From contig OZ231126.1 of assembly GCA_965153355.1 (NCBI GenBank), positions 14,322,001-14,386,000 of the forward strand: 64,000 nt of DNA, in the 5' to 3' direction. Under the pieces are notes generated by a model, which saw nothing but the letters and a program-made list of their open reading frames with translations, did no database searches and was not told the DNA's origin. Every line of letters starts with the position of its first letter. Positions within the stretch are counted from its first letter, which is position 1. A program made the translations under genes and the position numbers. Source of the DNA: Flaccisagitta enflata (lineage: Eukaryota). Shown here piece after piece: positions 1 through 50,918 of the stretch.

Positions 1-3000
1 TTGGATCAATCGAGAGTTTCGTGGAATGGCACGATTCTTCTGAAGGCATTCATATTCTTCAGAAAGAAGGTTTTTTGCTCTTGGCTAATGAGCTTTGCTA
101 ATGCCCTTTTCCGCTGTTGAGCAATCGAGTCATTCACCTCGCCCAAAGGGCTACAAAAGCGAATCACGTACATCATGATCCGCACCAGTTTTTCCAAAGA
201 GCTGTAACGTTCCAAACTGATGACAGGTTCACGAACCTGTGTGATATTGACTGCCACTTTCCTTTGTTCAATATCTGGCTTTTCCATCACAGGCTGATTC
301 GGCCAATCACCTGTTTTGATGAATTCAGGGCCCTCAATCCAGAGCTTGGATTGTTTTTCATCCAAAGGCCAAATGCCTCTGGATGGGATATCTGCTGGGT
401 TATCGTCTCCAGGCACCCACATGCATTTAACGCCATGACTGCCGCATGTTCGTTGGATTTCCGCAATCCTGTTCCCAACGAAGGGTTTGTAGCGTGCTGA
501 TGAAGATTCGATCCATCCAAGCGCGATAGTAGAATCTGTCCACAAGAAAGTCTCAATCCCAGATTTGAAAACTTCCTCGTGGAGAAAGGCAAGTAAGCGT
601 GAGCCTAACACTGCTCCCAGCAACTCCATGCGGGGGAGTGAGACAACTTTGATAGGCTTTACTCTTGTCTTGGACATGAGAAAGCAAGAGCCTCTCTCAG
701 AAAATGCATATGCAACAGCGGCATATGCTGATTCACTGGCATCTACAAAGATGTGAAGAACAGTAGGGTTGCCAAAGAACCGAGGAATTTCAAAGTCAAC
801 AACAGTTGCTTTTCTGAATTCTTCCACTTCATGCTTCAACTCATCAGATAGAAGCTGGTCCCAATCAGAACCTAGTTGCCATATCTTCTGCATTATCATC
901 TTCCCTTTGCAGATAAGAGGGCTCCTGCCACCAATAGGGTCCCAGAAGGAGGCAATTTTTTGCAAAAATTCCCTCTTGGTGGTTGGAGTTTTGTCCCACT
1001 CTTTGTTGGGGACACGGAGAGAGTCATGATTCGTGTGCCACTGCAAGCCAAGAACTGCAGCTTCTTCACTATCATCAGTTCCCTCAATCATGCTCAATAA
1101 CTCCTTGTTGTTGCTATTGATTTTGTGCACTTTCATGTGCATAGACCCAAAAAAGCCTTTGATTTGAGTGAGAATATCAACACCGTCATCAACTGAATCG
1201 CACCCTCCAGGCACATCGTCCATGTAGAGCTCGTTTTCGACAAATTCACAAGCTTTTGGGAATTTTTGTTGGATGTCATCGCGCAGAGCGTGGTATTCAC
1301 AAGTTGCCATGGACAGGAATGGAGATGAAGACTCACCGAACATCACACTAGTTTGGCGAGCTATCCCCTTGGTTGTGATGATTCAATGAAGGTCTTGTTG
1401 TTCAACTGGTATCTTTATCTGCCAAAACATCTTTTTGACATCAGACACGAATGCAATTTTTCGTGAACGAAAGCGTAGAATTGATCCAACAATATCTGGC
1501 AATAGATTTGGCCCAACATGTTGAGCGCTGTTCAGGGAAATGCCAAATTTACCCTTGAATGAGGCATTTTTTACAATCCTCACGGGTGTTGTTGGATGGC
1601 CTGGCCTAAGCACCAAGTGCCAAGGTAGGTAGTAGACACCTCCAGCTGGAGTGTCAGCATCAGAGACCAGTTCTAGAACACCAAGATCAAACTGCTCATC
1701 AAAAATCTTTTGAACAGTAGCTCTTTTTTCTGGGTCATTCTTCAGGATGGCTTGCTGTTTCCAATACAGAGCTTTCGTTGGCACAAAGTTGTCCGACAAC
1801 TTTTTCACCTCTTCCTTGTAAGGAATTTTGACCATGTACTGCTGGTTGACATCATCATAAGTGATGGTCTTCTTGAACTCTTCATGCACCTTTTCATCAA
1901 CAAGATTTTTGATTCTTGAGTTTGGATTTGGGCATTCTTCCAATTTCCAAAATTTTTCCAAGACATTTTCCAATGCCACAACCTGTGTCAGGTTTGTTGA
2001 TGTAAAGTGTGACGCATTCTGTCTTATACTACCTGATAAGACCCAACCAAACAAAGTTTGGATTGCACATGGCTCTCCTGGGTTACCAACTCTCTTGTTT
2101 CCAGTCTGTATGTGATCAGCATATTCATTGCCAATTAGCAACTCAACTTCAGTTGCATCACGTGGATAATCATCTGCAAACTGAATATCCGCCAAATGAG
2201 GATATTCTGTGCAAGGATCAAGTCTGATTGCATCCATATCAACTGTGAGTTTCTCTGCTGGAGAGACCACCGCTTCCATCTCACAGTAACGGTTATCTTT
2301 GGTGCAAAGACTGATCTTGACCACATCATAAAGTTCAGGTGCACGGTGTTCACCTGAAAATGCTGTTGCAACAGCAAGCAGCACTCGCCTTATCACGGGC
2401 AATTTCAACATTTTTGCAGTTTTTTGCAAAATCCATGTGGTCTGAGAACCATCATCAATGACTGACCGAATTGTCAAATTTGGTCTTTCTCTCGGAACAG
2501 CTTTGAAGTTCTTCAAAACTGTCAGTCCCTCTTTCTTTTGAGGCGCATGATGAAGTGAATTACAGCAAGTTTTCACGTTTGGCAATGACTCAGGCACTTG
2601 GGATTGTTTGGAGACTGTTGTTGATGAAACAGTAAATGTTGATGTTGGAGATGCAGTCTTTGCATCATCACTCATGGGTGGTTTTCCCCAGTGCAGGAGT
2701 GTGTGGTGAGGTTTTTGGCACACTCTGCACTTGATTGGTGACTTACAAGTCTTTGGGAAATGATCTTTGGTGATTGGCATCAAACATTTTTGACAATGCT
2801 TCTTTTTGAAGATGAAATCAGACCTTTCCTTTGGTGAAAGTTTTTTGAATTTTTCGCAATTGAAAATTCTGTGATCTCTGTCACAACAGAAGCATGTCAC
2901 CTCTCTACTCGCAGTAGTGAGCATCAATGTAGTCTTTGCTCGTGTGTCTTTGTTTTTTGCATCAGTTTTTTGTTCAGATGCTGTGCCATAACATTGCAAC

Positions 3001-4418
3001 TTTTCATGCAAAAAGTCCAGCAGCTTTTTTGTTGAAAATGAATTATCATCATTGATCTCCTCGCGCCATTTTTGCAAAATTTCCTTTGACATGAGTTCCT
3101 CAACAAAGGGTACTATTATCCAAGACCCATTGTCCATGTCTATGCCATACTCGGCCAGACATCTCATTGAGGTTTCCAATGTTGTAAGGAATGGCTTGAT
3201 GCAGTCGGTATCAAAGGGTTTGAGGTTCAAAATGTTTTTGACATGTGACTGTTGAACCAATCTGGGTTTTCCAAACATTTCTTTGAGAAATTTTTTGAAA
3301 TGGTCATAGTTGACATCGGTTATGTTGTACCCATCTGCCAGTTTCTTGGCTTCACCAACACAAGCATCCTTTAAGTAAAGGAGTTTTTCCACATTTGCCA
3401 AATCAGTGCGCTTGTCAATGAGAGATTCAAATGAGTTCCAAAATGCTTGGTATTCAGCTGGAGACTTCCCATAAAACTTTGGGATCTCTATTTTGGGTGT
3501 TTTTGCATGATAAGATGTAGATGCAGCAGGAGTTGTAGAGGAAGGAGGGATAGTGTTGGTATGTGCTGAAGGATTGAGAAATTTGTCTGCATTTGTGATG
3601 GCAGTTGAACCTCTTTCAGTCCATGTTTCTCCCAGTTCCAAATCTGCTGCCATAGCATCCTCATCATAAAATGCCCAAATTTCATCATCTTTTTTGTCCA
3701 ACTCTTTCAGAGCCTCTGAGAGGTTGGTTCTGGAATTTGCAACTGCAAATTTTTCGCCAGAATCTATGTCTTTCGTCAATTTGTTGATAGCTTTTGTAAG
3801 TCAGCCACGAACTGACCTTCTTTCCAATTTTTTCGTTTCCAACAGGTCTTTCTGTGCCTGAGGAAGTTTGGATTCACAATTTGTGATAGCGTCCATGGCG
3901 TGAAGATTTGTAGGGGTTGAAAGGGGGTTATCATTTATTTCTTCCTCTTCAGATTTGAATTCAGATTCAGAATCTGAATCTTCAGTTGAAGATAACCGGA
4001 TCTCTTCCCTCTCTTCCTCACTAGGAGGGTGAGGTTCACTTTCGTTCTCTAATTGTCTATACCGTTCCACAAATTCTTCACCTGTTGCAAGTGCACGTAT
4101 AGCAGCAGTTGAGTAATCACCAATTACTTTCGAATGAGCTTCTCGGAGTGATTCAGGGAAGAATTCTACTTCTTCATCAACACAAGAACTCAGTGTGTGA
4201 AATTCTCCTGACAACAATGTTGTTACAGGACTTAGAATGGCTCGCGCAAATTTTCCAGGATATTTTCGTGAATATTTTTCTACTTCTTTTATAAAGTGAT
4301 CAACTTTTTTCTGAGCTTCTTTCCTTTTATTAACCAAATGGTTCAATTTCTGTCTTTCTATCGTAGAAAGAGTTTTTTCCCATTCGGCAATCTTTGTTTT
4401 AGCTTGTATGAGGTCCAT
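1..4418 (-). pseudogene. Disrupted BEL/Pao gag-pol polyprotein
   Basis: ORFs 3801-4418, 1383-3779 and 6-1346 share one frame, separated by single TGA codons (3803-3801, 1385-1383). Motifs: gag (PKIEIPKFYG..YQAFWNSF), three Cys/His knuckles (CFCCDRDHRIFNC, CQKCLMPITKDHFPKTC, CRVCQKPHHTLLH), protease (VIDDGSQTTWI), RT (LYMDD), RNase H (LHIFVDASESAYAAVAY). A 1-nt frameshift near 62 restores FFSEEYECLQKNRAIPRNSRLIQ. Confidence 0.9.
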
Positions 4419-4506
4419 GTAACCGCTAGTTACTGTTAACCATGGCTAAAACAATTTTGAGATCAACTTCCACTATCAAAAATCCAACTTTGGATTATTT
4501 TGATAA

Positions 4507-20887: not shown

Positions 20888-20892
20888 TACAC

Positions 20893-21682
20893 TGAGAGCG
20901 TTTAGCGTCTAGTTTCTTAGCAAGCTCCTGATGCGTAATCGCGAGAACTGACTCCACTGCGTAGCTGCGCTAATGATTTGGAACGCACACCCGCTTAGAA
21001 CGAATTGTTGAGATGAGCGGTCAAGTTGTCCGCGAAATCAGTCTATTCGTGGAATCCTGACGGACAGAGAAAAGGAAAAAGGTTAGGACAAACTCTGTAC
21101 ATCAATGAAAGATACTTCTGTAAGGCGCCAAAAATGATAAAAAGGTCAAGGACTTACACGGATGTTGTCGAACGGTTTCCAATCTAGGCGCAGGGCAGGG
21201 AAGTCGGGGAAAAAGCATCAAAATCGAGTCTTTAACTGAGATCGTGAAATCGAATGTCAGTAAGAAAGTCAGGGAAGCTACTTTTACTTAACCTGGAAAT
21301 AACAACAAAAATGAATCAAAGCATCACGAGATTTGAAATTATTTGGCAGCAATGGAACAATGATAAATGGAATCGTCACGTCGTGGGAATTCGATAGAGG
21401 GGTCGAAGTCTTTTCTCCTCTAAGCGGTTGAGGAGATATAGTTCATCAATCCTCAACCGGAAGTCAGCGCTTCCGGCGCGCGCGCGCGTTCCTCCCCTTC
21501 CTCCGTCGATCGAAGATCTCTCTCCTTCTCCTCGATTTCCTCCACTCTGCAGTCGAGCAGACGCCATCTTGGATTTTCGGCAGCGAGAGAGCCTCTCCTC
21601 TTCTTCGGGATCCGCGGAGTCGACTGCATCCGATCGAGCGCTTCTTGACCTGGATATGGTGGGGAATGTGCAGAATGTCACA
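20893..21682 (-). repeat. 3' LTR of element B
   Basis: Direct repeat of 32571-33360; one substitution seen by eye (21392 C vs 33070 T). Confidence 0.97.
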
Positions 21683-21694
21683 GTCCCCCCATTT
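21683..21694 (-). promoter_or_regulatory. Polypurine tract of element B
   Basis: Minus strand AAATGGGGGGAC immediately before the TG of the 3' LTR. Confidence 0.8.
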
Positions 21695-22522
21695 GAAATA
21701 TTTGCCAAAAAATTTCAAATCTCGTATCTAACTAGTTTCTTGTCAGGGAATACCGTTCATTTTAAAATTTACAAGCTATGACAACATCCGGGGCTCATCT
21801 CAAAACAAAAATTTTTAAATATTACAAAGACACTATTATAAATATCGTGGATCTCGCGCGGATAAGACGATTCAGAAAATGGGTTCTAGGAGCAGAAACA
21901 CCTACCACCGTCGATCGTCCGGGCTATCGCTACGGTCTGGTTATGAATTGCTCCTCTTGCTCCATTCTGCATCCAGTCTTCATGCTAAACAAAAGAAAAA
22001 GGTAACGATACTAGATCCACGGGAATGATGGACTGAAATAAATAATTAGACTATACGCTAAGTGGCCTATACTAGTGTATATACTATACTAAACTACGTA
22101 CCAACGCCCCGTTAGGATTGTCCATCACTCCAGCACGTACGTCTCTGAAATGTAAGCGGGAGGGGGGGTTCCCCCACACCCGGGATGGGTATGGAGAAAC
22201 GGATTTGGAGAGTTAGAACTGATTCTCATTCCTCAAATCATACGCTTAATATTCTAATTTGGTACAATTGATTCATGAGCAATTCAAAACCCCCCTACCC
22301 CTCGACACTTACGCGGGAGAGTCGCAGGGGGGTCCCCGGTGGGACCCCCTCCCCCGACCGCCCTCTAGAGAAGCGAGGACGGCCGGCCTGTCCGTCACCG
22401 GAAGCATCTCGAGTCGCCATTGGATGATCAACCGCTAGTCTTCCGCGACGACGTGAAACGTCGGTATGATACGCGCGATTGAAGTGGGAAGACGATGGCC
22501 GGGATCATGGCGACGAGACCCT

Positions 22523-24852
22523 CTACTTCCGGCCTTTACCCCTGCCGCCCTTTCCTCCACGATAGGATGGCGCGTCGTCTTTCCTACTGTGGCGTGGAGG
22601 GGGGTTTCTGCCGGAAGGTGGCGCGTGGGTGCTCGACGACGCGGAGTGGCGTTGAGTGCCGGAAGTCGATGGCATCTGTCCGTCGGGCTGAGAGAACTCA
22701 GCGCGGACGCGGTCGGCTTCCTTCTTCGCGTCGGACAGCAGCTGGGCCATCTGAGCAACCTTTGCGTCGTGCTCACCGACAACCTTCATCCTAAAGTTGT
22801 ATTGTTCGATGAGCTTCCTCGCCGATCTGGCTCTATCCACGGCGTGATCGGCAGCGTAGATCGCGCGATCCATCGGAGATGAGTTGGGATAGAAGGCCGC
22901 CGGAAGAATGTCTACAACCTTTTGAATATCCTTCGACCGAGGATGACTTGGCAACTTGATGGCGACAGCCAACATCGTCTCGGTCAGAAGGTCTTCCGGC
23001 GATCGGGGAGGGCGGTGTGAAGGAGAGGAAGCGGATACAGTCGACGTTGACGACCTGTTGGACGTCGACGCATCCCCAGACTTCCTTTTTGGACGACGAT
23101 TTCTCTTCTTTTTGTTGGCGTTTTGCTCCTCTCGTCGCTGTTGGTCGTCGTTGACGGGAGGAGGAGGAGGTGGGGGCAGATTTGCGGCTGCCCCTGCGAG
23201 CGCACCCCCTTGATTGTTCGTTGTCGTCGTCGTTTGAGTTGGGACCCGGATTGGTGAAATGTCACGTGACCGCTGGCGTTGAGGAGGAGGAGGCCGGGGA
23301 GCAGGACCATGTGGTAATCTCGCGGGACCATCCATCACCGTCGATGATAACGATGCGGATGCATCCGGCGGTCCACCCCTGCTCACCCGACGTCTCTTCT
23401 CACTCACTTCGATTTGTAGATTGTTGGCGCCAGCTTTGGCTCGTCGATCGTCTCTCGGATGGTGTTGTGGAGGATCCTGCGTCGCGGGCGTCTGACGCTG
23501 ATCACTGCCACTTCCGGTCGAACGAATAGCCTCCGCGATCCGACGAGCGGCTCCTTCACGTCGTCTTTTTCTCTGATTTGAGGCTTTTCCGCGGGAAATG
23601 TCTCTCAAAGTCCCATTTCCCATGTCCGCCGTTGCTCCAATAGATCTGATGTTGATGATCTTGCACAATTGGAGCGTCTCGCGTGTTTCAACCGTCGCAA
23701 TCTCTCCGTCCTCTTCGACTAATTCGTCTCTGATTATTTGCGTTGGAACATATGCTCTTCGCTCGGCTTGTGGATGAAGAGCATCTCTCTCCGCACGTAA
23801 GCTACGCTGCTTGTCGTGGTACATCGCAGTGTGCTTCCGCTCGATGAGGGCGTCGACTTGGGCGTTGTAGATCTTCACCAATTCGACTGCTTGTTCCTGC
23901 GAGATGGAGGACAGGTCACTGATGTACGGCGGGATCACCAGCGTCGCGTCAGGTGATGCTTGAAACGGCGCCGGCGCGGTCGAGTCTGCGGCCGGCGTTA
24001 CTTGTAACGTCGGCAACTCCACGACCGCCTGCGACGTCTGCGGCGGCGGCGGCAGAATTGGGGGAGCAAGAGAAGGAGCAGTAAGTACCTGTAGGGGCGG
24101 GTCGAGCAACCTCCCCGGGGGGAAGTCCCTCTCCCCTTCCGTCATGTTCGTGAGTGTCCATGTCATCGCCCTCACTGTCATCCTGAGTCTCGTAGTCGTC
24201 ATCGTCGTCGTCGTCGTCAATCGTCAAAGTCTAAGTTGTCAGGGTCATTCAAATCCTGTCGCTCCACTTCTCCTGCTCCGCGTGGCGGCGGGGGGGCGTC
24301 CGTGGTGGAGTCCGACGTCGACTCCCCCATGAGCGCCTCCACTCCCGAGACTGCCGTATCGAAGCTTTCGTTGGCAGCTTGTTCTCTTTTCGCCTTTCTT
24401 GCCGCCCGGAGCGCATCGTCGGCTTGACGACGCGCTTCACCAGCGGCGCGCTTGTCGGCAAAGGCGTTGGCATCGAACGCGTTGAGGGCCCGAGCAGGAA
24501 TAGGGTCCGTAACGGTCCACGCGCCGGAAGACGAGTCGTTGAAGAGATGGCTGACCCCGTCGATGACGTCATCAGCTCCTCCAACGACGGACTGTTGCAA
24601 CCCGCGAAGCCTGCGTTGTTCTCTGAGGGACGCTGCCCTGGCCTCCTGCTCCTGTCTCCTCCTCTTCTTCTCCGGGTCTTTCTTCTCTTCCTCCACTTTC
24701 CTCTTCTCCTCTTCCACCCTCGCCCGCTCCTCTTCCATCCTCCTCGTCTCCTCCTCATGACTCCTCACCAACTCGTCCTGGGCTTGCGCCATTCGCTGCC
24801 TCCTCGCTTCGCGGATCTTGTCCGGCGTGCCATGGTTGTTCTGCTGCGACAT
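22523..24852 (-). pseudogene. Extra ORF3 of element B (~775 codons, two frame breaks), unknown non-env protein
   Basis: ORFs 24217-24852, 23949-24227 and 22523-24220 join; one extra T at ~24220 restores DNLDFDDDDDDDDDYETQ. Coiled-coil N-terminus, acidic tract, Pro-rich and basic clusters, RGG tail; CAG acceptor 11 nt before the ATG. Confidence 0.7.
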
Positions 24853-25396
24853 GATGGATCTCTCTGCAACAGTTATGCGACGATACCGACAAGGGGAAGC
24901 TTTTAGCGTAAGATAGTGTAAACGCCTGTTTTTGGAGAAAATTCAGATTTCGAGGTGTAATCAAACGGAAAGAGGAAGACATATTCATCAACATTGAGGA
25001 AGATTAAATGGTATACGCAGACAAAGAAATAAAGACTCTTCGATCAGCGCCTCAAATGACCTCCACTCTCAACAGTCAATGATATGGATAAAACGGAAAA
25101 GAAAATGACGAACGAATGCCTCTATATGGTCAATACAAGATTGAAATGGCATGGCAAAATTTGGATTGTCAGTCAATCATGCGGACATTCTCAACTGACT
25201 GGGGCACCATGTACCTCTCTCTCTCCTGTAATTACACACAAAGACATATCAGACAGACCGACTGAGAAAAAGTAAACAAGACCAAAATATTCATGAGAGA
25301 AAGAACCCTCATTTTCATGTATAGTCCTTACAAATAGAAGCACTTATGCTTCTTTCTGGTCTACTTCCTCTCTCTCTCTTCACACTTATCCGTTTT

Positions 25397-28300
25397 TTAA
25401 TCTGAATCCAGCTCCAATCGGACGATCTTCGACCGATCCTTGAGAACAATCTTGCCGTCGGGGCGTAGGATCTGTGCTTTCCGGACATGACCACCAGATC
25501 CTTCCACTTCGACGACGCGTCCCAAAGACCACTGATGCCGATGAAGCGTCTCGTCAACGATGATGACCAATGCATCTTTTTTAATGTTCACTTCCGACTT
25601 TGTCCATTTACTCCTTGCGTGCAGCAACTGAAGGTATTCGGCGCGCCATACCTTCCAGAAGGCGTCGACGCGGGCCTGTGCGTTTCTCCATCGGCATCTC
25701 GTTCCCACGGCGTCGTTTCCGGTCTCTGGAGGGAGAATAGCTGCCGACGAGTGCGAGAACGTAGACGGATGCAAGATGTTCACCGGCCTCAGCGCCGATG
25801 TATCGCTAGGATCGTCGCTCAAAGGCGTGAGAGGTCGACGGTTGAGAATTCCTTCCACCTCAATCACTGCCGTTTGGAAGACGTCGTAATGGAGCACGTG
25901 ACCGGAAGTAATGGACGCCAAGTGTTTTTTGAAAAGGGATACGACCCTTTCCCATACGCCGCCGTAATGAGGAGTCCCAGGAGGAATGAAGTCCCATTGG
26001 AGTCCATGCTGCTGCAGAGCCACCGTCGACGACGCGTTCCACGACTGCATCTCCTCCTTCATGACGCGATTTGCCCCAACCAGGTTGGTGCCACAGTCTG
26101 ATATGAATCGACGCACCGTTTGCCGTCTCGCCGCGAATCGAATGATGGCATTGATCATTGCCTCTGTGTCCATTTTAAACAAAACCTCCACATGCACCGC
26201 CCTCGAAACCATGCAGGTAAACACCACTGCCCAGACTTTATGGTCCGCCCTGCCGTTCAGTTTCACCAGGAAGTGGCCCATACAGTCAAGTCCCACCTCC
26301 TCGAAGGGCGCTGTTGGAATTAGCCGTCGTTGAGGGAGAGGCGCCATCTGTTGCTTCATAGGATCTTTGAAGTTTCTTTGGCACGTGACGCAATGGTGGA
26401 TGACTGTTTTTACCGCCTGGAGACCTCGAAGAATCCACACAAAGCGTCGCAGTTGGCATAAGACGTGTTTTGGGCCTGCATGAAGATCCTGATGATGAAC
26501 GTGGCGAATCAGAGAAGTGACGTTTGGATCCTTCGATGGGAGAATCATCGGGTATTTCTCATCATGGCCAATATCCGCATTCACCAGTCTGCTCCCGACA
26601 CGCATCGTCCCTTTCTCGTCAACAACCGGATTGTGATGACGTAGAGATTTGCAGATCACTTTGGCGCCGGCGTCATTAATCAGCGGCGTCGTTTTTCCCA
26701 CCGCCTTCAACTTGGTTATCTCTCCATGGAAATGTTTGAACTGGATTGCGTTCAAGCGGCGTTGTGCGTCGTACAACTCAGCCATAGATACAGATGGATT
26801 TGGCAGCGTCGTCGCCGCTGCTCTGGTTTTTGCCTTCACCTTCTGTCTCCATCGCTGCGCGCACTTCACAATCACGGCGATCAAACGCAATTTCGCCACC
26901 CATTCCTGGCGACGGGCTGCCACTGCGTAGGCGAACATTTCCTTCTCCTTCTCCCCCTCCTCTTCTTCCACCGCTTCTGTCGCGACGGCGTTGATTGATG
27001 CCTCCGGCGCCGTCGCAATATTCATTACCGGCCACTCAGATTTGGGAAGGTAGAGAAACTTTGGACCGAAATGGAAGATGTCCCATTTTTCTTTGTCGCC
27101 GGCGTCAATACCCCGCGAACAATAGTCCGCGGGGTTATTCTCCGAATCAACCCACCTCCATTGAGAATCACTTGAGCCGCTGTGGATTTTTGAAAGTCGG
27201 TTTGCGAAGAAGCTCGGACGTTTAGATTTATGGTCGAAAATCATCTTCAGCACCGCCTCTGAATCTGACCAGAGCGTCACCATGTCCTCGGTTACCTTTG
27301 GAATGGTCCTCTTGATGAACAGTTTGAGTTTCACCGCTTTCTCTGCCGCTGTCATTTCTAACCTCGGCACTGAATTGTGGTGCGACGCTTTTGACGCATC
27401 AAGAGGGACGACGTGGGCCTTGGCGCACAAAATGGTAACGCGGATTGTTCCATCCTCATCTTCCACCAACCAATAGCCCACTACTCCAAACCCAGGGATG
27501 GCGGCGTTGCAGAAAATGTGAACTTCTCGTCGAACGGCCTTCACTATGCCCCACTCAATATGGCGCGGAATTTCAATCTGGATCAGCAATGGAGTCGCAG
27601 AGTACCATTTGGCGAAGCGTTTGATCAACGCCTCCTCCATCGTCGAATCCCATCCTTTCTCGGAAGCTCTCGTCAACTGAAGACACCTCCTCCCTTCAAG
27701 GGCGCGGGGCGCTGTGAATCCTAATGGATCATAGTTGTCGGCTTGCATGGAGACCAATTCGCGAGGAGTCGTTGCCACCCTCTTGCATGCTTCTGGATCG
27801 CATCTGAAGATGAAGCAGTCCGTCGACGGCAACCATTGGACCCCCAAGACCTTCGTTGGCTCCTCGAGTTTGGCGCTCAAGTCGACTGCGACGTTCGGAT
27901 CCTCATCCATCACCTCCACCGCGTTCGACTTCCACTTAGTCAGTAAACCGCCGCTCTTCATGGCGATGAGATCTTGCTTCAACTGCAGTGCCTCGTCAAC
28001 TGAATCCGCACCACCAGAGCCGTCATCAACGTAGAAGGCATGTCTTAACATTTCGTAGACATTTTCCGGGAAGTCGGGCTTGATCTTCTCTGCGTGATGG
28101 CGTAAAACATAGCTGGTGACGAGACTCGATGAGACAGATCCAAAGATGTGCGCAAGAAGAGCATCACGACGTTTCTCTCATGCTCTTGTCAGTGAACCAC
28201 ATATATGAACGTGTCCGCGCCTCAGGATGGACGCGGATATTATGAAAGAACGCCTTTATATCGGTCATCAGACCGATTTTATAAAGGCGAAATTTCATAA

Positions 28301-29396
28301 GGACTTCAGTCAAGACGTTCATGATATTCGGGCCTCCAATCAGTAGCTCATTGAGGCAAACGCCGCCAGTTTCCGCGCGTCCATCGTGACAAATCCGCGT
28401 TTTATTTCTTTCCTCCACCACATGGATGGGTAAGTACCAGCGGGGCGATGAGATGCTTGCGTCGTCGTTCTTCGGATCAATCTCAATCGCCACGCCCGTA
28501 TCCACAAATTTGTCCATTTCTTTGAAGACGCGATCGCGGAGGTCATGGTTGTTTGAGAGTTTATACCGGATGCTTTTTGTCCTTTTAATCGTCATCGCCC
28601 GTGCGTTGACAGACTTGATAATCTCGATGATCTTCTCTTTCTCATACCGCCATGGAAGCCCCACGACGTATTTTTGGAGATTCTCGTCGAAGTATATCGT
28701 CTCCATCACCCGCTTCACCGCGCGACGATTCTCTTCAGACTGACCCATTTCTTCCTCTGATACAATGGCGAAGTCATGATAGAACATGCGGTCGAGAGAT
28801 TTGCTCAATGCAACATTATCCACGTGGATTGCGTTAATGACAGCGGTATCGTCCGATCTTCGTCCACTCTTTCCTGCTACAGTCCATCCAAAACCGCATC
28901 TGAAGGCTGTCAAAGATCCTGATGGACCTCTTCTTGCCTCCACAGGCATCGTCGCGTCGTAATGGGCGGCGCCGATGATTAATTGGACAGGACCATTTAC
29001 TTTTGGAAATGGAATGTTGCGAAGATGAGATTGACTTGTGAAGTCGCGTTGGCATGGAGCAATATCCGCCTCACCCGTCAATAACTCTCCCGTTAGTGCG
29101 TTGCTGATGTGGACGTTGTATTCCTCGTCAATCGATGAAAGGATAAAGGACGCCAAAACTTTCTCCTCCACCACTTCACAATTGACCGTATGCACGCGCA
29201 TCAGCATCTTTTTGGTTGGTAAGTCTAATTTTTTAACGATTTGAAGCGATAAAACGTCACGATCCGCACCGCTGTCAATCATCCCCAACACTACGGTGGA
29301 ACGGCCCGTCGAGGCGTTGGTGATTTTTACAGGAACAATCGGTCGCGTGACATCATCCTCCGCGACCACCGTCCTCATCGCGGAGGTGGCAGCGAG
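25397..29396 (-). pseudogene. pol: pol of element B (protease, RT, RNase H, integrase), frameshifted near 28170
   Basis: GMIDSGADRD (protease), FYVDDG (RT), VHIFCNAA (RNase H with catalytic D->N), HHCC zinc motif, GLDCMG / ISDCGTN / GVWERVV (DDE integrase), FWKVWRAEYL C-terminal BEL domain. Confidence 0.93.
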
Positions 29397-32300
29397 TCAC
29401 GCCTCCATCACTCTTCCTTCATCAGATGCAGAGTCATCCGTCGACGAGCTGCTTGGGGGCGCTGGAGGAACGGTTTTGGAGGCGGCAGCGGCTGCGGCTA
29501 ATGCGGCGGCATTCGGCGTCTTGAACGTGATTCCTTCTCCATTCCCTCTCGGCTTGAATTGGCGGTCGTGTAGCAAAGTTGCGTGTCTCTTATTGCAGGA
29601 TGAGCATGTTGGCTTGTCTTTGCAGTCCTGCGCCGAATGGTTTGGGCAGAAACAATGAAAGCATAGACGTTTCTCAGCCAACTTCTTCACACGATCCTCT
29701 GCTGACGGGATGGCTTCTAAAACGTTGCACGAATGGGAATTATGACGACCTCCACAAATATTGCAGATGTCGTTGGGTTGTTGCTTCGGAGGTGAGTTGA
29801 CGAGCTGTTCCTTAAACGTCGCCGGACCAACTGCCGTCGCTGCAACCTTTGTCGGTTTCGGCGCCATGCGTGTTGGTTCTTTGAGGTTGTTGTACGACAC
29901 CCAATGCTTCACCTCCTCGATGAGTTCTTGGAAGCCGTAAGCCGTGCCATGGCGAGCTTGTTCACGCGCGCTCGCTTTCCAATAGTCCGTCGAGATGTGT
30001 GGCACCCTCGCGTTGATGATGCGGCGGATGTGGACGTCACGATCACACTCTCCAGGTACATTCAGCAATTCTGCGACGCTTTCCAGTTTGTACATCGTGC
30101 CAATCAATGCTTGATGGGCTCTCATGTCGTTTTCTGGAACCTTTCCTTTCCTGCAGATGCTGTCGACGGCCGATTGGAATGGGTTGGCGCTCGTGTTGAA
30201 CATCTCGTCCAGGCGTCTCCACAAGGTGCTGTAGACACGGCGCATATTGTGCTCCTTGATGATGAGATGTTGACCGTCGATGATTTCCTTCGCTGGATTC
30301 GCGAAGACGTTGGCCAATTCAGTCACTTTGTCGATTTCGTCTAGCTCGATGTTGGAGGCGGCATTTTCAAATTTGGATTTGGCAATGATATAGTCGATCG
30401 GCTCGAGGTATCCATACGCTTCTCTTGGACGTGCTGCGCGCATTTCCCTCAATCCCACGTCCTTTGCTCTGACGCGGGCGTCGTAGGCGATCGGATTGTC
30501 GATGAAAGAGACCGCGTTCATCCTCTCGGCGAAGGACTGCGAATGCGCGAGGCCGTTTTGCGCGGAGTCACTTCCGGTTTGACGTCTTTGATACGTAGGA
30601 GGCGACGGCGTTGGGGGTGGCGTCTTCCTCGACTTCCGTCGTCGCGAACCCTTCGTCATCGAAGACGTTGTCGACCAGGGGGCGCTGACTCCCGCGTACA
30701 TTTCGGGATGCTTGCGGAGCTGGAAGATCACCCGCGATTTGGCGGACGATGACGGGTGAGCTTGGTGATGGCGGCGTCGATTTGCGCGGTGGAACACGTG
30801 TCTGCAAAACGACGCTGTCCTCCAGGTTGAGATCGCTGATTAATTGTTGGACCCTTGCCATCGCGTCCGCGTGATCCATCGCGTTCTTTTCTTGCTCCGC
30901 TGCATCCTGTCTCGTGCGCAGTTGCTCGTGGAGAGGATGTTCACGTGCGGCTGGGGGTGGCGTCTTGGATGACAGTTGTTTCTGCTGACTTTTCTTTGCG
31001 CCTCTCTCCTCTTCCTCTCCTCTTCCTCTTTCCTTTTCTTCTCTTCCTCCTTTTTCTTTTCTTCGCGTCTTTTCTTCTCCTCCATCCTCTTCCTTTCTTC
31101 CGCGTCTCTTTTGGCCACCGCCTTCCTTCTCTCCTCCTCTGCTTTCCTCTCCGCTTCTTTCTCTTCTTTCTTCCTCTCTCCTTTCTCTCTTTTCCTGTGC
31201 GATCTTGTTCTTCAAGTTCGTCCTCCTTTTTTCCTCCTGCTCCTTTCTCGTCTCCTCTGCCTTCCTTCTCACTTCTTCAGCGTGGATGCGTTGTCTTTCC
31301 TCCTCCTCCTCCTTCTCCTTCTTCCTCCTCTCCTCCTCCTCCCTTCTTTTCCTCTCGTCGATCCCGGCCGTGACCGCGTCTGTCCGGGCAGTAACGGCTG
31401 CGTCTAATGCGATGTTTGCCGTCAGCTGCCGGGCGTTCTCTTCCCGTTGTTGGGATACAGATTGCGAACTGAGACGGAATCTTGTGTTTGCGCGTGCTTC
31501 TCTCGCCACCGAGCGTCGAACTTGGTTGACGTCGTTGACGAGACGTTTGACGACATGCACCATCGCGTCGCCTTGAGCGTCTCTGTCGCCATCAATAATT
31601 GACTGCTGTAGCATGTCGAGAAGATCTTGTGTGGGAGGGGCGCCGCCAACGGCGCCTGGAGGGAGGTCGGCGTCGGCGTTCGGCCATGACGTTTCCATCG
31701 CGTCGTCGGCGTCGTCGCCTTCATCGTCTCTGGCTGACATAAAACGCGACCTCGCTGGCGTCACCGGCGTTGGAGGTTCAAAGTTTATACGTATTTCCTT
31801 GGCGTCTTCTATCGCGCCTGGCGTATGGGGCGGCGCGTTGTGACGTTGCTCCGCTGCATTGAGATTCGCTGCTTCCGTACCGACGGGCAAGTCGTCCTCT
31901 CCCGCGTCTTCATCGTCGCCGGTCACGTTCGGCGTTGATTTGCGTCGTCGTGAGAGGGATTGGACAAAATGCGTCGACGACCCCATCGTCATCTCGAGAG
32001 CGCGTTTTGCTCCAGTCTCTGGTGACTCGTCGTGGATATCGTGGTAAGTCGGCAGGAACAAGTGTGAGGCAAAAGTGTTTTTATCGTGGAAGCATGATTG
32101 GTCCCACAGTTTCCGTACTTCCGTCAATGAGCTTTCGGCCGTCGATAATAGTGACGCCGCTTTGTCGGGATTGTTCGTCGACTCTGCATGTGCGTAAGTC
32201 TTTGTCGTGTTTACAAGTCGCCACGCCGCTAACCACACCTCCTTTCGAAGGCAGTCCATATCTTGGTAAAAGTCCAATATATCGTCATCGTTAAGAGTAT

Positions 32301-32526
32301 CGGCGGTTTTCAACGCCGACATGTAGGCGTTGCGCGTGTTGCGTAGCGCCTTTCGTAATCCGCGAAGCGTCGTGGCCACGGGGTCCATTGCGCCCGCGTA
32401 GACGGACGAGTCGGAAACGACGGACACGCAGTCGGTTGGTCGAAAGGCCTTTCTGCGTTGATTGGGCAGCGAAGGTGGCGGCATTGACATCGCGTCGGCG
32501 TTGGCGTTGTTGTTGGCGGTCGACAT
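29397..32526 (-). pseudogene. gag: gag of element B (~1040 codons, frameshifted)
   Basis: ORFs 30568-32526 and 29397-30797; three BEL-type knuckles CNICGGRHNSHSC, CFHCFCPNHSAQDC, CSSCNKRHATLLH; E/K/R-rich helical segment. Confidence 0.88.
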
Positions 32527-32570: not shown

Positions 32571-33360
32571 TGAGAGCGTTTAGCGTCTAGTTTCTTAGCA
32601 AGCTCCTGATGCGTAATCGCGAGAACTGACTCCACTGCGTAGCTGCGCTAATGATTTGGAACGCACACCCGCTTAGAACGAATTGTTGAGATGAGCGGTC
32701 AAGTTGTCCGCGAAATCAGTCTATTCGTGGAATCCTGACGGACAGAGAAAAGGAAAAAGGTTAGGACAAACTCTGTACATCAATGAAAGATACTTCTGTA
32801 AGGCGCCAAAAATGATAAAAAGGTCAAGGACTTACACGGATGTTGTCGAACGGTTTCCAATCTAGGCGCAGGGCAGGGAAGTCGGGGAAAAAGCATCAAA
32901 ATCGAGTCTTTAACTGAGATCGTGAAATCGAATGTCAGTAAGAAAGTCAGGGAAGCTACTTTTACTTAACCTGGAAATAACAACAAAAATGAATCAAAGC
33001 ATCACGAGATTTGAAATTATTTGGCAGCAATGGAACAATGATAAATGGAATCGTCACGTCGTGGGAATTTGATAGAGGGGTCGAAGTCTTTTCTCCTCTA
33101 AGCGGTTGAGGAGATATAGTTCATCAATCCTCAACCGGAAGTCAGCGCTTCCGGCGCGCGCGCGCGTTCCTCCCCTTCCTCCGTCGATCGAAGATCTCTC
33201 TCCTTCTCCTCGATTTCCTCCACTCTGCAGTCGAGCAGACGCCATCTTGGATTTTCGGCAGCGAGAGAGCCTCTCCTCTTCTTCGGGATCCGCGGAGTCG
33301 ACTGCATCCGATCGAGCGCTTCTTGACCTGGATATGGTGGGGAATGTGCAGAATGTCACA
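32571..33360 (-). repeat. 5' LTR of element B
   Basis: Direct repeat of 20893-21682; GC-rich U3 with CCGGAAG and AAGATGGCG motifs, Inr-like TCAGTT at 32917-32912, candidate intron 32835-32735. Confidence 0.97.
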
Positions 33361-34401
33361 TACACAAACAGGAAATTTTGGTTTCACTTTACTTTTTGCT
33401 TGTGATATAGATTTAAAATAAAAAGATATTATTGAGATTTTAGTTAATTATTTTTGATATAATTTATAAGGAGTCTGAACAATGTTTTTAAACCCAGAAT
33501 ACTAATAATGGTTTCATAACAATCAGAAATAGAAATTGAATGTTTGAATTCCTCAGAAAAATAGTGAACAAAATTAAAAAATATTGTTAGGTGAAATTAT
33601 ATCATGTCCTCAGTAAAGAAAATTTTGCATTTCTAAGATCATGGCCCTTTTCTTATATGTTTTTAAAAAGAGGCCATGTTCTTGGAAATACAAATTTTTT
33701 TTATTTCTATGCACCTAACAGGAATGAGATGACAAAGTATAATTTTCTATAAAAAATCTTCCTTTCTGTACCTTTTTTCAATATATTATGTACATTAAAT
33801 TTGTATGTCAGAGATTAACTATGCAAAAGTTTATTGTTCAACACTTAAAAAATGTTTTTTCAACAAAAAAAATTATAAAAAAATGATATAAAAAATATCT
33901 AAAAAAATTGAAATGAACCATGAAATTTCTTTTTCCCTTACACTGCGTCATATGTTCTTCTTTACATGTCAGGCTGATCGTATCGATATTCTCCTTACAG
34001 CATAACAAATTGTAACATATAAAAAAATATATAGAAAGACAAATTGATGAACCCACCATTTAAAAGAAAGTCTCCGATATTTGCTGTCATCATTCTTAAA
34101 GATGGGTGGCTAAACTTATGTCCCGCCCCTGATATTTCTTGCATCAATCTCCACAGGCTCATCACTCAGTGCTATGTATAATAGTGACGAGCCATCCAGT
34201 CCACGGCTTGTCTTACACATCGTTCACGTTCTTTCCTCAACCTCAAAATGTGGTTTATCGTTCCCAGGGTATTCGCAAAACCTTGATTAACCCTTTTTCT
34301 CCTCCGAAGGCGATCAGGCGATAGTCCTAATGAGGTACGCAGGACTGAGAGTGATGCCATGGTATCGGCGACGTGCCTTCACTATGCCTGGGCCCTGACT
34401 G

Positions 34402-47512: not shown

Positions 47513-48567
47513 GGAGAAGATGAAGAAGAAGAAGAGGAAGAAGAAGAAAAAGAAAAAAAAAAGAAAAAGAAAAAGACATGAAGAAAAAGAAAAAGAAGAG
47601 CAAGAAAAAGAAGAAGAAGAGCAAGAAAAAGAAGAGCAAGAAAAAGAAGGAGAAGAGCAAGAAAAAGAAAAAGAAAAAGGTAAGGAAAAAGAAGAGGAAG
47701 AAGAAGAAAAAGAAAAAGAAACCTAGGAAGAGGTAAATAAGATAAAAAGAAAGTTGAAGAAGAGGAAGAAGAAGAAGAAGAAAAAGAAAAAGAAAAAGAA
47801 AAAGAAAAAGAAAAAGAAAAAGAAAAAGAAAAAAAAGAGCGAGAAGATGAAGAAGAGCAACAAGAAGTAAAAGAACAAGGCCGGATACACGGCCACCAGT
47901 TGCGGACGGGTGGGCAGGGGCGGAAATACGCGTTTCCACACTTTTCGACTCGTGCACACCAACGGACCGACGGACCGACGGACGGACGGACGGACGGACG
48001 GACGGACAAAGAAAGAAAGCATCAAATTGTTGACCATCAAGTTTATGAAACCATTTCTCGAATCATTAATCTTACTAACATTATTTCAATATTCGTACAC
48101 TTTTGCATGAAAACATACTTTCAACTATGGTTACATTGATCGCCAACTCCTTTTTTAAAGAAGAGGAAAAGCTGTCGCTTTAATATCGGTCTCGCTTCGA
48201 TATCGGTCTCGCTTTATTATCCATCGCGTCATACTCCGTCGCGTCATACTCCGTCGGCCAAGTTGCATCGCTTTAATTTCGGTAACCCGACGGACAAAGG
48301 CTCTTATAGAGTTGCGTGTCCGCAACTAAAAAGAAGAATTTAAATAAAGGAAAAGAAAACGAAGAAAAGGAAGAGGAATAAAAAAATAGAAATTAAAAAA
48401 ACAACAGCAACAAAGAAGAAGAAAAGAGAGGGAAGAACATGAAATAAGAACAACATCAACAAATGAAAAACAAAACTCAAACTTCGACAACATCACAAAA
48501 GAAACCGGAAATTCGGTTACAGAAAATTAAGAGAAGAAACGTTAAAAACACCATCAACAACAACACC

Positions 48568-48635
<68 letters not shown>

Positions 48636-48658
48636 CCTTTTATAGCAATTTAGCATAC

Positions 48659-50583
48659 CCGCAACTTCCGACTGAGCCGGTTCCGCCTTTGTAGAAGATT
48701 CTCCGATCTTAAATCTTGCTCCTTCAACCGGTGAACATCTTTGATTTGACGGCGGCGCGTTATTCTCGACCACGGTGGGCTTCATATCAATTACGGACTC
48801 GGATTTCTTTGGAATTCTGTAGTTCTTAAGTTGGGTCATGGAGGGCGGATAAAGAAACGGTGTGGTTTTATGATTGAGGAGAGGTACTTTAAGAGTGGAA
48901 GTTGCGGTGAGATTCTGTGAGGTCGATGAAGAAGACACGCCGACAGAGTGGCAAGTTGCGGCGGAAGTTGATCTCTTTACGGAGGAAGCTGATGAAGAGG
49001 ATTTAACTGCGGATCGCAATGCAGATGCGCTGATATTTCCGCTTGATTCCGGCTGAGTGGACGGCGACGCGTCATTCTCGACCGCGACCGGTTTGTCATC
49101 GATGATTACCGATTCAGATTTTTTCGGAATCCTGAAATTCTCCAATTTGCTCGTAGGGGGCGGATGATCAACGAGGGGATACGAAGAGGATCCGGAAACT
49201 TGATAAGCGGATGCCGCAGTGAGATTCTGCGCAGACAAAGAAGAAGATGCGCTGACAGCTCGGCAAGCGGACGTCGAAGATCGTGACGAAGATGCGCTGT
49301 TGCTCCCGCGTGACGCCGCCGAAGTCGATGATCGAATGGAGGAAACTGATGCTGACTGCTTAACTGATGATCGATGAGTATCGCCAGGATGGCGAAATTT
49401 GGATTCTAAGGCTTGGGTCGCCGAATACGTGGGATTCAAACCAGTTCTTGGATGACCGGAAGCGGCGTGAGATGCCGTCGCAGTCGGACGATTCTGCTTA
49501 GACGTTGAGGCGCCAACAGTCCCGTTGATTCTTCCTCTAACCACCGACGCATATGATTGAACAGAGGTACTCGATGTAAAAGGCTGGATGGAAGAAGACG
49601 CCCCGGTTTGACCGATATTCCGACCATCTCCTTGGCGAGCGGATGCAGTCTGTGATGAGGAATTGGAGGTCGCAGTCGCTGTCGGCTGAGTTTGAAGCGC
49701 TTCTGGCGATGCGTCGGAACTTCCCTCCGCATCTCTTGATCGGCCGTTTGGCACTGAAGACTTTGTTCCTTGTTCGCCTCTCGTTGATTTGTTGGCATTA
49801 GATCGACTTCCTTTGCCGTGTCCGCGTCCTCTTGAATGACTTGCATGATCGCCACGCGCTTGACTGGAACTGTCAGGCTCTCTCGAGTAAGGATGGTGTC
49901 TGTCATTCGGTCTGTCGCATCGACCACCAAATCCACCACCAACGCCGCTACCCCGTCCCCTGCGAGAGCAATGTCCGCTAGTTCCACCTCTTCCTTCCCC
50001 TCCTCTTCCTCCACCTCTTTCTGATCCTCTTCCCCCTCCTCTTCCTCCATTGCTTGGGCCCTCTCCTCCATCGTGGGGTCGTGAGGGGGAAGATGAATCA
50101 TTGGATGAACGCCCGTGTTTCTCTACGAAATGCCTCACACCTTCGGCCCGTGTTTCGTAGAGATTTTCTTCGCAATTCGGAGACTGACAAAGGTACACAC
50201 GCTTGATGTGAAGTTTTTCGACATGATGATGGTACTCGCTGACTATTACCTTTTCATCGCAGAGGCCACAGATGAAGTTATTCGCGGTTTTTTGGCGGAG
50301 ATAGTGGGCGTGCACATATCTGCGAAAGTTTCCCCGATCCGCTGGATCTGGTACAAAGTCAGGTACCGTGGCGTTGTGAGCCAATGACGGTGATGAGCCG
50401 GAAAATGTGGGCGATTGCGGGGATGATAAAGAAAGCGATGCCAAGGGTGAAGTGGGAGAAGTGGCCCCGGCTGGAGATGATGGCGCCGGGCGAGGGCAAG
50501 GCGAACATTTTTCGATGTCCAGAAATTGAATAAAATGATTCAAATTGGCACCGATTCTTTTTGCACAGTCACCAGGACTTTTT
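48659..50583 (-). CDS. Host gene coding exon 3: two C2H2-like fingers, RGG region, Ser-rich region with duplicated [FY]RIPKKSESVI motif
   Basis: 1.9-kb open frame; acceptor ttctttttcccag, donor GG/GTATGC; CGLC-x11-H-x4-H and CQSPNC-x14-H-x4-H patterns. Confidence 0.82.
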
Positions 50584-50918
50584 CTGGGAAAAAGAATTAA
50601 GAAATTACATAAGTACTATGCTTCAGTAAAATTGTTGTCGAAAAAAGCCGAACAATCCTCTTGCAACATTCTTTTATGAACCTCACATTCATTCTTTCAT
50701 TGACATCCGGACGTTCATCCATTAAGAAAGCTTCGTTGGGGCCTTTCCTCTTGGCTATGTTCTAATTTCTAACTTTTACATGGAAAACTAGGAGTGGTGC
50801 GCGTATTAACTAGTCAGTGAGGGTTCACAAGGCCTTCTTCCATTTATTTCAGTTTGGGTATAGTGAGGGATATTGTTCCACTTTGAATGCACTGAAGGCT
50901 TTATGAGCAAGAATGGCT

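Follow-up and report, generated by a model that had tools for sequence, protein, structure and literature searches.

Layout of the Element

The window, by which we mean the whole 64,000-nt stretch of DNA analyzed here, carries on its minus strand a BEL/Pao LTR retrotransposon of 12,468 bp. The parts of the element other than its third gene, ORF3, are listed below. The LTRs were delimited by a blastn comparison of the window with itself, the target-site duplication was read from the sequence, and pol was placed with Pfam and an intact relative.

33361..33365, minus strand: target-site duplication GTGTA on the 5' side, with its twin copy at 20888-20892
32571..33360, minus strand: 5' LTR, 790 nt, with TG..CA ends
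29397..32526, minus strand: gag, with stop TGA (29399-29397) in frame with pol
25397..29396, minus strand: pol (protease, RT, RNase H, integrase)
24853..25396, minus strand: pol-ORF3 spacer, 39.5% GC
21695..22522, minus strand: 3' untranslated region, with GC-rich hairpins at 22400-22280
21683..21694, minus strand: polypurine tract (PPT) AAATGGGGGGAC, adjoining the 3' LTR
20893..21682, minus strand: 3' LTR, 789/790 identical to the 5' LTR

The element shows the features of Belpaoviridae, namely, two LTRs, a target duplication, a Pao-type peptidase, the order PR-RT-RH-IN, and a DUF5641 tail. Pfam places Peptidase_A17 (5.2e-27), DUF5641 (7e-20), and Integrase_H2C2 (7.7e-07) on pol, together with an rve match (6.7e-06) whose 26.7 bits lie below the curated cut-off of 32.6; pol relatives carry PF00078. 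An intact relative, P0059 (1332 aa), is 99% identical to pol of the window copy, in which there is one frame break within RT, near 28170. Gag likewise has one frame break, near 30640-30680, where intact relatives have a single 1049-aa ORF that runs from a long N-terminal extension, which is disordered and includes an ER/K region, through a capsid-like part to CCHC knuckles. Relative to P0170, the N-terminal piece of gag matches at 85% over 96% and the C-terminal piece at 389/416, and both proteins share the end ...GRVMEA. The cited part of PMC3118150 gives 4.2-10 kb as the usual size of BEL/Pao elements. The present element lies outside this range because its gag has a long extension and because it carries ORF3 and the 3' UTR; size is descriptive, not defining, for BEL/Pao membership.

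As the preliminary description of this locus had it, ORF3 sits on the sense strand between integrase, which ends at 25397, and the purine tract at 21694-21683 before the 3' LTR. About 830 nt of noncoding sequence separate its stop from the PPT. The hairpins in this region reach a modest z of -2.4 against shuffles, and an Rfam search of the element returned no family. No AATAAA was found on the sense strand 3' of ORF3, which is not informative.

ORF3 Is Broken in the Window Copy and Intact in Its Relatives

ORF3 starts at ATG 24852-24850 on the minus strand and stops at TAG 22525-22523. The preliminary description presented it as a single ORF of ∼775 codons, which does not hold: the span 24852..22526 is 2327 nt, not a multiple of 3, and the coding sequence falls into three pieces in different frames. 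These frameshifts are absent from that description.

24217..24852, minus strand: ORF3 piece 1, frame A, 211 aa and stop TGA (24219-24217), with the start Met, the ER/K charged helix, and a conserved helical block
24087..24218, minus strand: ORF3 piece 2, second frame, ∼44 codons, with the poly-Asp/acidic tract and the MDTHEHDGRGEG motif
22523..24085, minus strand: ORF3 piece 3, third frame, ∼520 codons and stop

Piece 3 holds a Pro-rich region, helices, three NLS-type clusters, a C-terminal helical domain, and an RGG/RG tail. When mapped onto the intact relative P0031, the three pieces are identical at 184/191, 40/44, and 503/532 residues, respectively. The copy of ORF3 in the window is thus inactivated by two frame breaks. 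The RSCU correlation is 0.54 in the true frame versus 0.48 and 0.52 elsewhere, values that do not separate the frames, with two of the segments cut out of frame. The peptides quoted earlier (QEQAVELVKIYNAQVDALIERKH, PMDRAIYAADHAVDRARSARKLIEQYN, QRKRRRE, KKKRNRRPKRK, and the RGGKGGRGKGRK tail) were all recovered in the translations. The poly-Asp tract reported with them is real, but it is present in the second frame only and not in the frames of the flanking pieces.

Seven relatives of ORF3 were found among ∼5.8 billion proteins (8,000 candidates scored). A family profile run against 1.84 billion representative proteins gave 16 matches, and the 8 of these that were inspected comprised seven family members or fragments and one spurious match (P0022), with no relative from beyond the family. 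Five lineages (P0031, P0002/P0041, P0004/P0046, P0049, and P0056) have full-length proteins of 761-836 aa. Pairwise identities between lineages are 52-61%, and 256 of 768 positions do not vary, among them short motifs that lie in disordered parts. By calculation, 3.7% of single-base changes create a stop; at 0.1 substitutions/site, the chance that a neutral frame of 2.3 kb remains open is P ∼1e-4. Comparison of these proteins shows, at the level of sequence, that ORF3 is a selected gene and not a chance frame, because intact 761-836-aa relatives persist in five lineages with one-third of their positions (256/768) unchanged. ATG 24852 can be taken as the start because the N-terminal pattern M-x(4-8)-GTP-xx-[LI]R-x-x-R-x-QR is common to six lineages. 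Broken copies are also common: besides the window copy, P0030 is broken, and P0006, P0015, P0020, P0021, and P0056 have frame-shifted tails.

The pairing of ORF3 lineages with pol lineages comes from a single equal-size contig match, in which ORF3 P0029 and P0191, a 465-aa gag fragment of the window's family, were both recorded from a 9,256-nt contig. No equal contig size was seen among the 15 members listed for each of the pol and ORF3 clusters. Nucleotide searches for relatives found none in JGI metagenome contigs (ORF3 and integrase-end queries), IMG/VR, or prokaryote genome contigs, and ORF3 has no similarity to the element's own gag. We conclude that a subclade of BEL/Pao elements in a marine animal carries ORF3 as a genuine, lineage-restricted accessory gene.

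Predicted Structure and Motifs of the Intact Protein

The intact protein, a highly charged chain of about 770-830 aa, begins with the ER/K charged helix and the conserved helical block, passes through the acidic poly-Asp tract and a Pro-rich linker to long helices and three NLS-type basic clusters, and closes with a conserved C-terminal helical domain and the RGG/RG tail. The C-terminal domain ends in a 60-residue helix and carries an NES-like motif. A model of the whole protein is poor (pLDDT 55, pTM 0.25), contains no strands, and has pLDDT <50 in 416 of 768 residues; no RNA-binding fold is predicted. The intact protein is predicted to be soluble and mostly (more than half) disordered.

ER/K single α-helices are long, rich in E, R, and K, and held by i/i+4 salt bridges without a hydrophobic seam. 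In a heuristic test, helix 10-69 (pLDDT >90) has this character, with 57% charged residues, 0.30 i/i+4 opposite-charge pairs per residue, and 35% hydrophobic residues at a/d positions. The helix described earlier as an E/R/K coiled coil is therefore present, but with 57% charge and 35% a/d hydrophobicity it is better named an ER/K-type charged helix.

Searches for a known family or fold were negative. Pfam gave no family match; at E ≤ 1 it listed only three subthreshold rows, all of which fell on the P0002 ER/K helix. In sequence searches of PDB, the best E-values were 0.53 and 0.026, the second of them from a charged helix, and a PDB profile search gave 0 matches. The preliminary description had proposed an AlphaFold-Foldseek search; Foldseek against PDB and BFVD, with low-confidence models as queries, returned nothing at E ≤ 0.001, fusogens included. 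VIA-align reached a best Z of 6.0 with generic long helices and coiled coils only (again from low-confidence models, with the 60-residue helix of the C-terminal domain), and the ESM Atlas gave no usable match. The claim that the protein lacks a signal peptide, a transmembrane segment, and a Cys-rich region stands for the intact relatives, in which the Kyte-Doolittle mean over 19 residues peaks at 0.81-0.93 and Cys residues number one to three. Hydropathy, Cys count, and the lack of a significant Foldseek, PDB, or BFVD match all agree with the earlier view of a soluble third gene product that is not env-like.

The nuclear and RNA-binding matches are short motifs. K[KR]x[KR] clusters at P0002 residues 420, 477, and 575 are kept, at the motif level, in all five lineages. 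The same holds for an L-x3-M-x2-[IV]-x-I motif at residue 615. NES-type matches (class-1a type) number one per protein, about the shuffle expectation (mean 0.62); because the count equals this expectation, only the positional conservation of the match counts, and the region around it is conserved as a whole. In RGG/RG RNA-binding proteins, closely spaced RGG/RG repeats lie in a disordered region. The C-terminal tract YRGGKGGRGKGRK is short but of this kind, with one RGG and RG/KG repeats, and an RG motif starts at tail column 757 in five of five sequences. The full-length protein of lineage 5, P0056, has a frame-shifted tail, whereas its lineage-mate P0007 keeps the RGG tail. Together, the motifs are consistent with a nuclear or RNA-binding role for ORF3.

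Transcription and Candidate Splice Sites

Parts of 22400-25400 (ORF3 and its flanks) were found in marine runs from 10 studies, RNA libraries included, so that a common animal of the plankton is the probable host. Six RNA-library rows contain 8-35% of this interval's words, in contigs that may represent genomic RNA or DNA carry-over. One candidate donor lies in the 5' LTR.

32830..32838, minus strand: donor-like site cgt|GTAAGT inside the 5' LTR, intron start 32835, by consensus match

It is the only site between 33360 and 32300 that matches MAGGTRAGT at ≥7/9. Consensus matches in the pol-ORF3 spacer give acceptor-like sites whose exons would start at 25261, 25225, and 25121. The CATAAC (24877-24872) and TTGCAG (24869-24864) previously pointed out ahead of the ATG are present, with 11 nt from CAG to ATG. 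The TTGCAG acceptor has a weak pyrimidine tract, however, and simple consensus scoring finds better acceptor-like sites upstream.

A Proposed Role on the Element's Own RNA

We tentatively favor, at somewhat less than even confidence, the explanation that this soluble, selected, non-envelope ORF3 product is a nuclear RNA-binding adaptor that acts on the element's own RNA and is made from a subgenomic mRNA. The message for the protein would terminate in the 3' LTR and would arise by splicing or by internal initiation. The protein would enter the nucleus, bind element RNA via its basic and RGG regions, and serve as a scaffold or adaptor. Rev and CERV suggest, by analogy, that its likely roles would be export, stabilization, or packaging of unspliced genomic RNA. 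The export-factor reading is suggested because a stop separates gag and pol in the element and ORF3 needs a separate message, a situation in which retroelements use export factors, according to the part of PMC10309623 cited here. A narrower version of this explanation, which we regard as possible but unlikely, makes the element a "complex" retroelement in which ORF3 is a Rev/CERV-like shuttling adaptor that multimerizes on unspliced RNA, perhaps at the 3' UTR's GC-rich hairpins, and exports it from the nucleus. If true, this would be the first regulatory accessory gene described in Belpaoviridae, arisen independently of those of retroviruses and Cer1.

The basic clusters, the RGG/RG tail, and long helices suited to oligomers could also belong to a structural protein, a second nucleic-acid chaperone or scaffold that is packaged in the virus-like particle and resembles L1 ORF1p or a protein of nucleocapsid type, and the generic coiled coils that alone match the 60-residue helix of the C-terminal domain (best Z 6.0) would fit such a role. 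We consider it improbable: gag already supplies CCHC knuckles, no capsid-like fold is seen, and a nuclear location is indicated by the three conserved clusters of NLS type. Similarly low is the probability that the disordered protein is a counter-defense factor, which would bind and block host silencing or restriction factors (small-RNA or chromatin) and not act on element RNA. Its orphan, lineage-restricted status, the many invariant short motifs within disordered regions, which are typical of docking motifs, and the large acidic tract beside basic tracts all speak for it. However, the 52-61% identity between ORF3 lineages is close to the 56-57% of the nearest pol relatives, the lineage pairing being presumed, which is not arms-race-fast, and the factor has no known partner. 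The anti-silencing factor and the RNA chaperone offered as examples in the preliminary description are conjectural.

It is highly improbable that ORF3 is a passenger, a captured fragment of a host gene with no role in the element life cycle. Capture of genes as ORF3 in other LTR elements is documented in the cited portion of PMC5408684, and the protein libraries searched could lack intron-bearing host genes; against this, 1.84 billion representatives hold no relative beyond the family (8/16 matches inspected), and the start, the stop region, and 256 positions are retained by five lineages whose divergence accompanied that of the element. A degenerate or unconventional envelope or cell-to-cell spread protein, suggested by the env position and by the env-like extra ORFs of BEL/Pao elements in the cited parts of PMC13524379 and PMC3118150, has almost no probability left, given a polar N-terminus that lacks a signal peptide, the absence of any hydrophobic segment (19-residue hydropathy of at most 0.93 in three intact relatives), one to three Cys residues, more than half of the chain disordered with no Cys-rich folded ectodomain, and no significant PDB or BFVD match, fusogens included; ORF3 is not an envelope protein.

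The ORF3 protein is also a clean case of a long chain that is mostly disordered and in which many short motifs are invariant, and it could be used to study how retroelements dock onto host machinery.

Comparison with Known Systems

RNA export adaptors such as Rev, Rex, and CERV are grouped by function, not by homology. Rev and Rex of complex retroviruses combine an arginine-rich nuclear/RNA-binding signal, a leucine-type export motif, and multimerization helices. ORF3 resembles them, as discussed in PMC10309623, in having candidates for this combination and in being a gene 3' of pol that needs its own message. Rev and Rex differ from ORF3 in size (∼100-300 aa) and in their overlapping spliced exons, and no homology was found; the sole candidate in the element for a responsive RNA of this type is the set of 3' UTR GC hairpins, with their modest z.

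The extra ORFs of Cer7 and Tas are env-like. Among BEL/Pao ORF3s, that of Roo is F-like and those of mosquito chuvirus type are gB-like, as described in the cited part of PMC13524379. These genes share superfamily and position with the present ORF3 but encode membrane fusogens with a signal peptide and an anchor, neither of which it has. In the passages cited from PMC13524379 and PMC3118150, the extra genes of BEL/Pao are all envelope-like, and a nonmembrane ORF3 departs from that pattern.

Outside BEL/Pao, the sections cited from PMC5408684 describe LTR elements of bdelloid rotifers in which the env position can likewise hold unrelated, family-specific genes; these are a GDSL esterase and a DEDDy exonuclease, in Ty3/gypsy-like elements, whereas the present ORF3 has no enzyme fold or known relatives. 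Plant Retand elements, in the part of PMC11963269 cited, also have a long region from pol to the 3' LTR with a conserved additional ORF that is possibly nucleic-acid-binding and regulatory, but those ORFs are antisense, carry a TRP28 domain, and belong to plant Ty3/gypsy elements.

CERV, from the C. elegans Ty3/gypsy element Cer1, is nuclear and required to export unspliced genomic RNA, according to the cited part of PMC10309623. Like ORF3, it is a large accessory protein of a retroelement, confined to its lineage and lacking homologues elsewhere, and the same text credits it with candidate NLS and NES motifs and a helical zipper. CERV is described there as the product of a 5-exon spliced mRNA sharing exons with gag; it contains a Cys loop and two globular domains, M and G. 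ORF3, in contrast, is one self-contained frame after pol in a BEL/Pao element, mostly disordered by prediction and without Cys motifs, and the two have no sequence relation. The conserved, orphan, nonmembrane third gene shows that proteins with an accessory or regulatory character have arisen in the BEL/Pao superfamily too, just as they did in complex retroviruses and in Cer1.

The BEL/Pao Element and Its gag and pol Genes

A GC-rich block (53-56% GC against about 40% in the surroundings) corresponds to a complete minus-strand LTR retrotransposon of 12,468 bp, whose LTRs begin with TG and terminate in CA and which carries a 5-bp duplication, GTGTA, on both flanks.

Features of the element
33360..32571, minus strand: LTR, 790 nt
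21682..20893, minus strand: LTR, 790 nt, differing from the other at 1 position
30571-32526 with 29400-30839, minus strand: gag, split by a frame break in the window copy

Pfam matches in 25400-28177 comprise Peptidase_A17, the Pao peptidase (5.2e-27), Integrase_H2C2, and DUF5641, with rve slightly below its cut-off; these domains recur, together with PF00078, in the closest pol relatives. On the basis of the LTRs, the target duplication, and the pol domains of the window copy and of these relatives, the element is a member of BEL/Pao. Elements of this group are reported to be usually 4.2-10 kb (PMC3118150), so the present one is unusually long. Another BEL/Pao element, only distantly related, lies at 9-4445 on the minus strand and is truncated by the edge of the window; its pol is 27% identical to that of the main element, its gag has DUF1759, Peptidase_A17 is present, and its post-pol region falls outside the window. 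At 48480-50615, also on the minus strand, a 712-codon open frame without a Pfam match is Ser-rich and contains a GGRGG-type glycine/arginine stretch and C2H2-like Cys/His pairs.

Intact gag relatives are single 1049-aa ORFs, and one of them, P0170, aligns with both window gag pieces and has the same C-terminal residues. The protein is unusually long: its first ∼630 residues form a disordered extension with an ER/K-rich stretch of its own, followed by a capsid-like part and three CCHC knuckles. Pfam gave no match on gag, DUF1759 included. Intact pol is 1332 aa (relative P0059), and among the closest relatives pol forms an ORF of its own, 784-1,346 aa long. The gag stop (29397-29399, minus strand) is a TGA followed by C and is in frame with pol, an arrangement suggestive of Gag-Pol synthesis by readthrough of the stop codon. 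Among pol relatives with a name, those closest to the element (sea anemone, oyster, moth, sea spider) share only 28-33% identity with it. The same kind of source yielded more than 30 further pol lineages at 34-57% identity, compared with about five lineages for ORF3; ORF3 therefore seems confined to a subclade.

ORF3 Is a Conserved Gene, Broken in the Window Copy

The preliminary description read ORF3 as one continuous frame of ∼775 codons. The window does contain the start codon (ATG at 24852) and the stop (22525-22523), the CATAAC/TTGCAG pair ahead of the former, and all of the peptides quoted there; the continuous frame is absent, 24852..22526 being 2327 nt and no multiple of three. The first frame terminates at 24219-24217, after ...DNLDFDD, only the second encodes the poly-Asp tract, and the final ∼520 codons are in the third. 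When each piece is aligned on its own to P0031, an intact relative, the three map to residues 1-191 (184/191 identical), 194-237 (40/44), and 226-761 (503/532), so that the frame is broken twice, near 24219 and again near 24087. With one break in gag and another inside RT near 28170, the copy has four, despite LTRs that differ at 1/790 positions and an intact target duplication. Either indels introduced during assembly or mobilisation of a defective copy in trans could account for this.

Among about 5.8 billion proteins searched, 7 ORF3 relatives emerged; the family profile, run against 1.84 billion representatives, returned 16 matches. Seven of the 8 matches examined are family members or fragments, and none of the 8 has a name or Pfam domain; the weak match P0022 (E 2.5e-4), a chaperonin-like repeat, was discarded as spurious. 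Cluster look-ups supplied additional full-length forms. The cluster nearest the window has 82 members, and 11 of the 15 that were listed are 761 aa long; other lineages have lengths of 768/772, 815/817, 811, and 836 aa. Five lineages are 52-61% identical pairwise (81% for relatives P0002 and P0031), with 256/768 positions invariant, and invariant motifs occur within predicted disorder (RDISPIR, SLSSTVM, DGQxPSTSGTQR, VTPAAD). Single-base changes create a stop in 3.7% of cases in the window frame; at 0.1 substitutions per site, a neutral 2.3-kb frame would stay open with P of about 1e-4 to 2e-4, and with far smaller probability at the divergence actually seen among the lineages. Because the N-terminal motif M-x(4-8)-GTP-xx-[LI]R..R.QR is common to six lineages, the start of ORF3 is the ATG at 24852, and the protein requires no upstream exon. 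Broken copies also occur among the relatives (P0030; frame-shifted tails in P0006, P0015, P0020, P0021, and P0056), as expected in a transposon family. One independent link of ORF3 to the element is that the ORF3 relative P0029 and P0191, a fragment of gag from the window's family, are each recorded from a contig of 9,256 nt.

Expression of ORF3

The spacer between pol and ORF3 is 544 nt and AT-rich (39.5% GC). Within the leader region, the one good match to a donor consensus is at 32835. Acceptor-like sites at 25261, 25225, and 25121 have better pyrimidine tracts than the TTGCAG site proposed initially, which alone keeps 24852 as the first ATG. Between 8 and 35% of the words of 22400-25400 occur in six RNA-library rows, a measure of presence in RNA libraries that does not show a subgenomic message. 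Five full-length relatives (P0034, P0056, P0004, P0046, P0032) are from contigs of 2574-3192 nt that extend only 100-900 nt beyond the ORF; these may represent a discrete ORF3-sized transcript or a chance of assembly. In the 3′ UTR (22280-22400, minus strand), two GC-rich hairpins (MFE -66.2 kcal/mol, z -2.4 vs shuffles) may serve the element as an RNA signal.

Composition and Predicted Structure

Hydrophobic segments are absent from intact ORF3 relatives (the highest Kyte-Doolittle mean over 19 residues is 0.81-0.93), the N-terminus is polar, and there are 1-3 cysteines. Net charge is near zero, but the charges are strongly segregated, the middle being acidic and the C-terminal half basic. 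AlphaFold2, run with a 22-sequence alignment, gave a mean pLDDT of 55 (416/768 residues below 50) and a model without strands, in which isolated long helices span 10-69, 116-158, 310-350, 369-396, 408-432, and 652-711. The first helix, described earlier as an E/R/K coiled coil, is a charged helix of the ER/K type and not a heptad coiled coil. Modelled alone, the C-terminal domain reached a pLDDT of 70, with three short helices and one of 60 residues; structure comparison of this domain returned generic long helices only (best Z 6.0, none at Z ≥8). Foldseek against PDB and BFVD, sequence and profile searches against PDB, and Pfam gave nothing significant for ORF3. In 5/5 lineages, three K[KR]x[KR] clusters occupy the same positions, an RG motif begins at the tail column, and one L-x3-M-x2-[IV]-x-I motif is positionally conserved, the count of NES-type matches being no higher than in shuffles.

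Interpretation

The element is an LTR retroelement carrying a lineage-specific accessory gene, and LTR elements with accessory genes are already known from the literature searched. The conserved signature (nuclear-import-type clusters, an arginine/glycine tail, an export-type motif, long helices, and many linear motifs), together with a gene layout in which UGA separates gag from pol and the third gene needs its own message, leads us to favor, tentatively and at somewhat under even chances, a nuclear adaptor that would bind the element's RNA as the best fit. Its main rivals are a particle-associated chaperone and a counter-defence factor. A captured host gene is an unlikely origin, as ORF3 resembled nothing outside its own family in the searches above. 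In the literature searched, the extra ORFs of BEL/Pao are envelope-like, F-like in Roo and gB-like in mosquito elements (PMC13524379), although "few contain an env gene" at all (PMC3118150). For ORF3, each defining feature that could be tested (hydrophobic segment, N-terminus, cysteines) excludes an envelope protein, in agreement with the initial reading.

The portions of the literature searched describe neither this family of ORF3 proteins nor any BEL/Pao element whose ORF3 is not envelope-like. Non-envelope ORF3s are reported in bdelloid Ty3/gypsy-like elements (PMC5408684), antisense extra ORFs in plant Retand elements (PMC11963269), and a regulatory accessory protein in Cer1 (PMC10309623). 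As a nuclear RNA-binding adaptor for its own element's RNA, ORF3 would be comparable to Rev of HIV-1 and to CERV, the accessory protein of the C. elegans Ty3/gypsy element Cer1, in the same role (PMC10309623).
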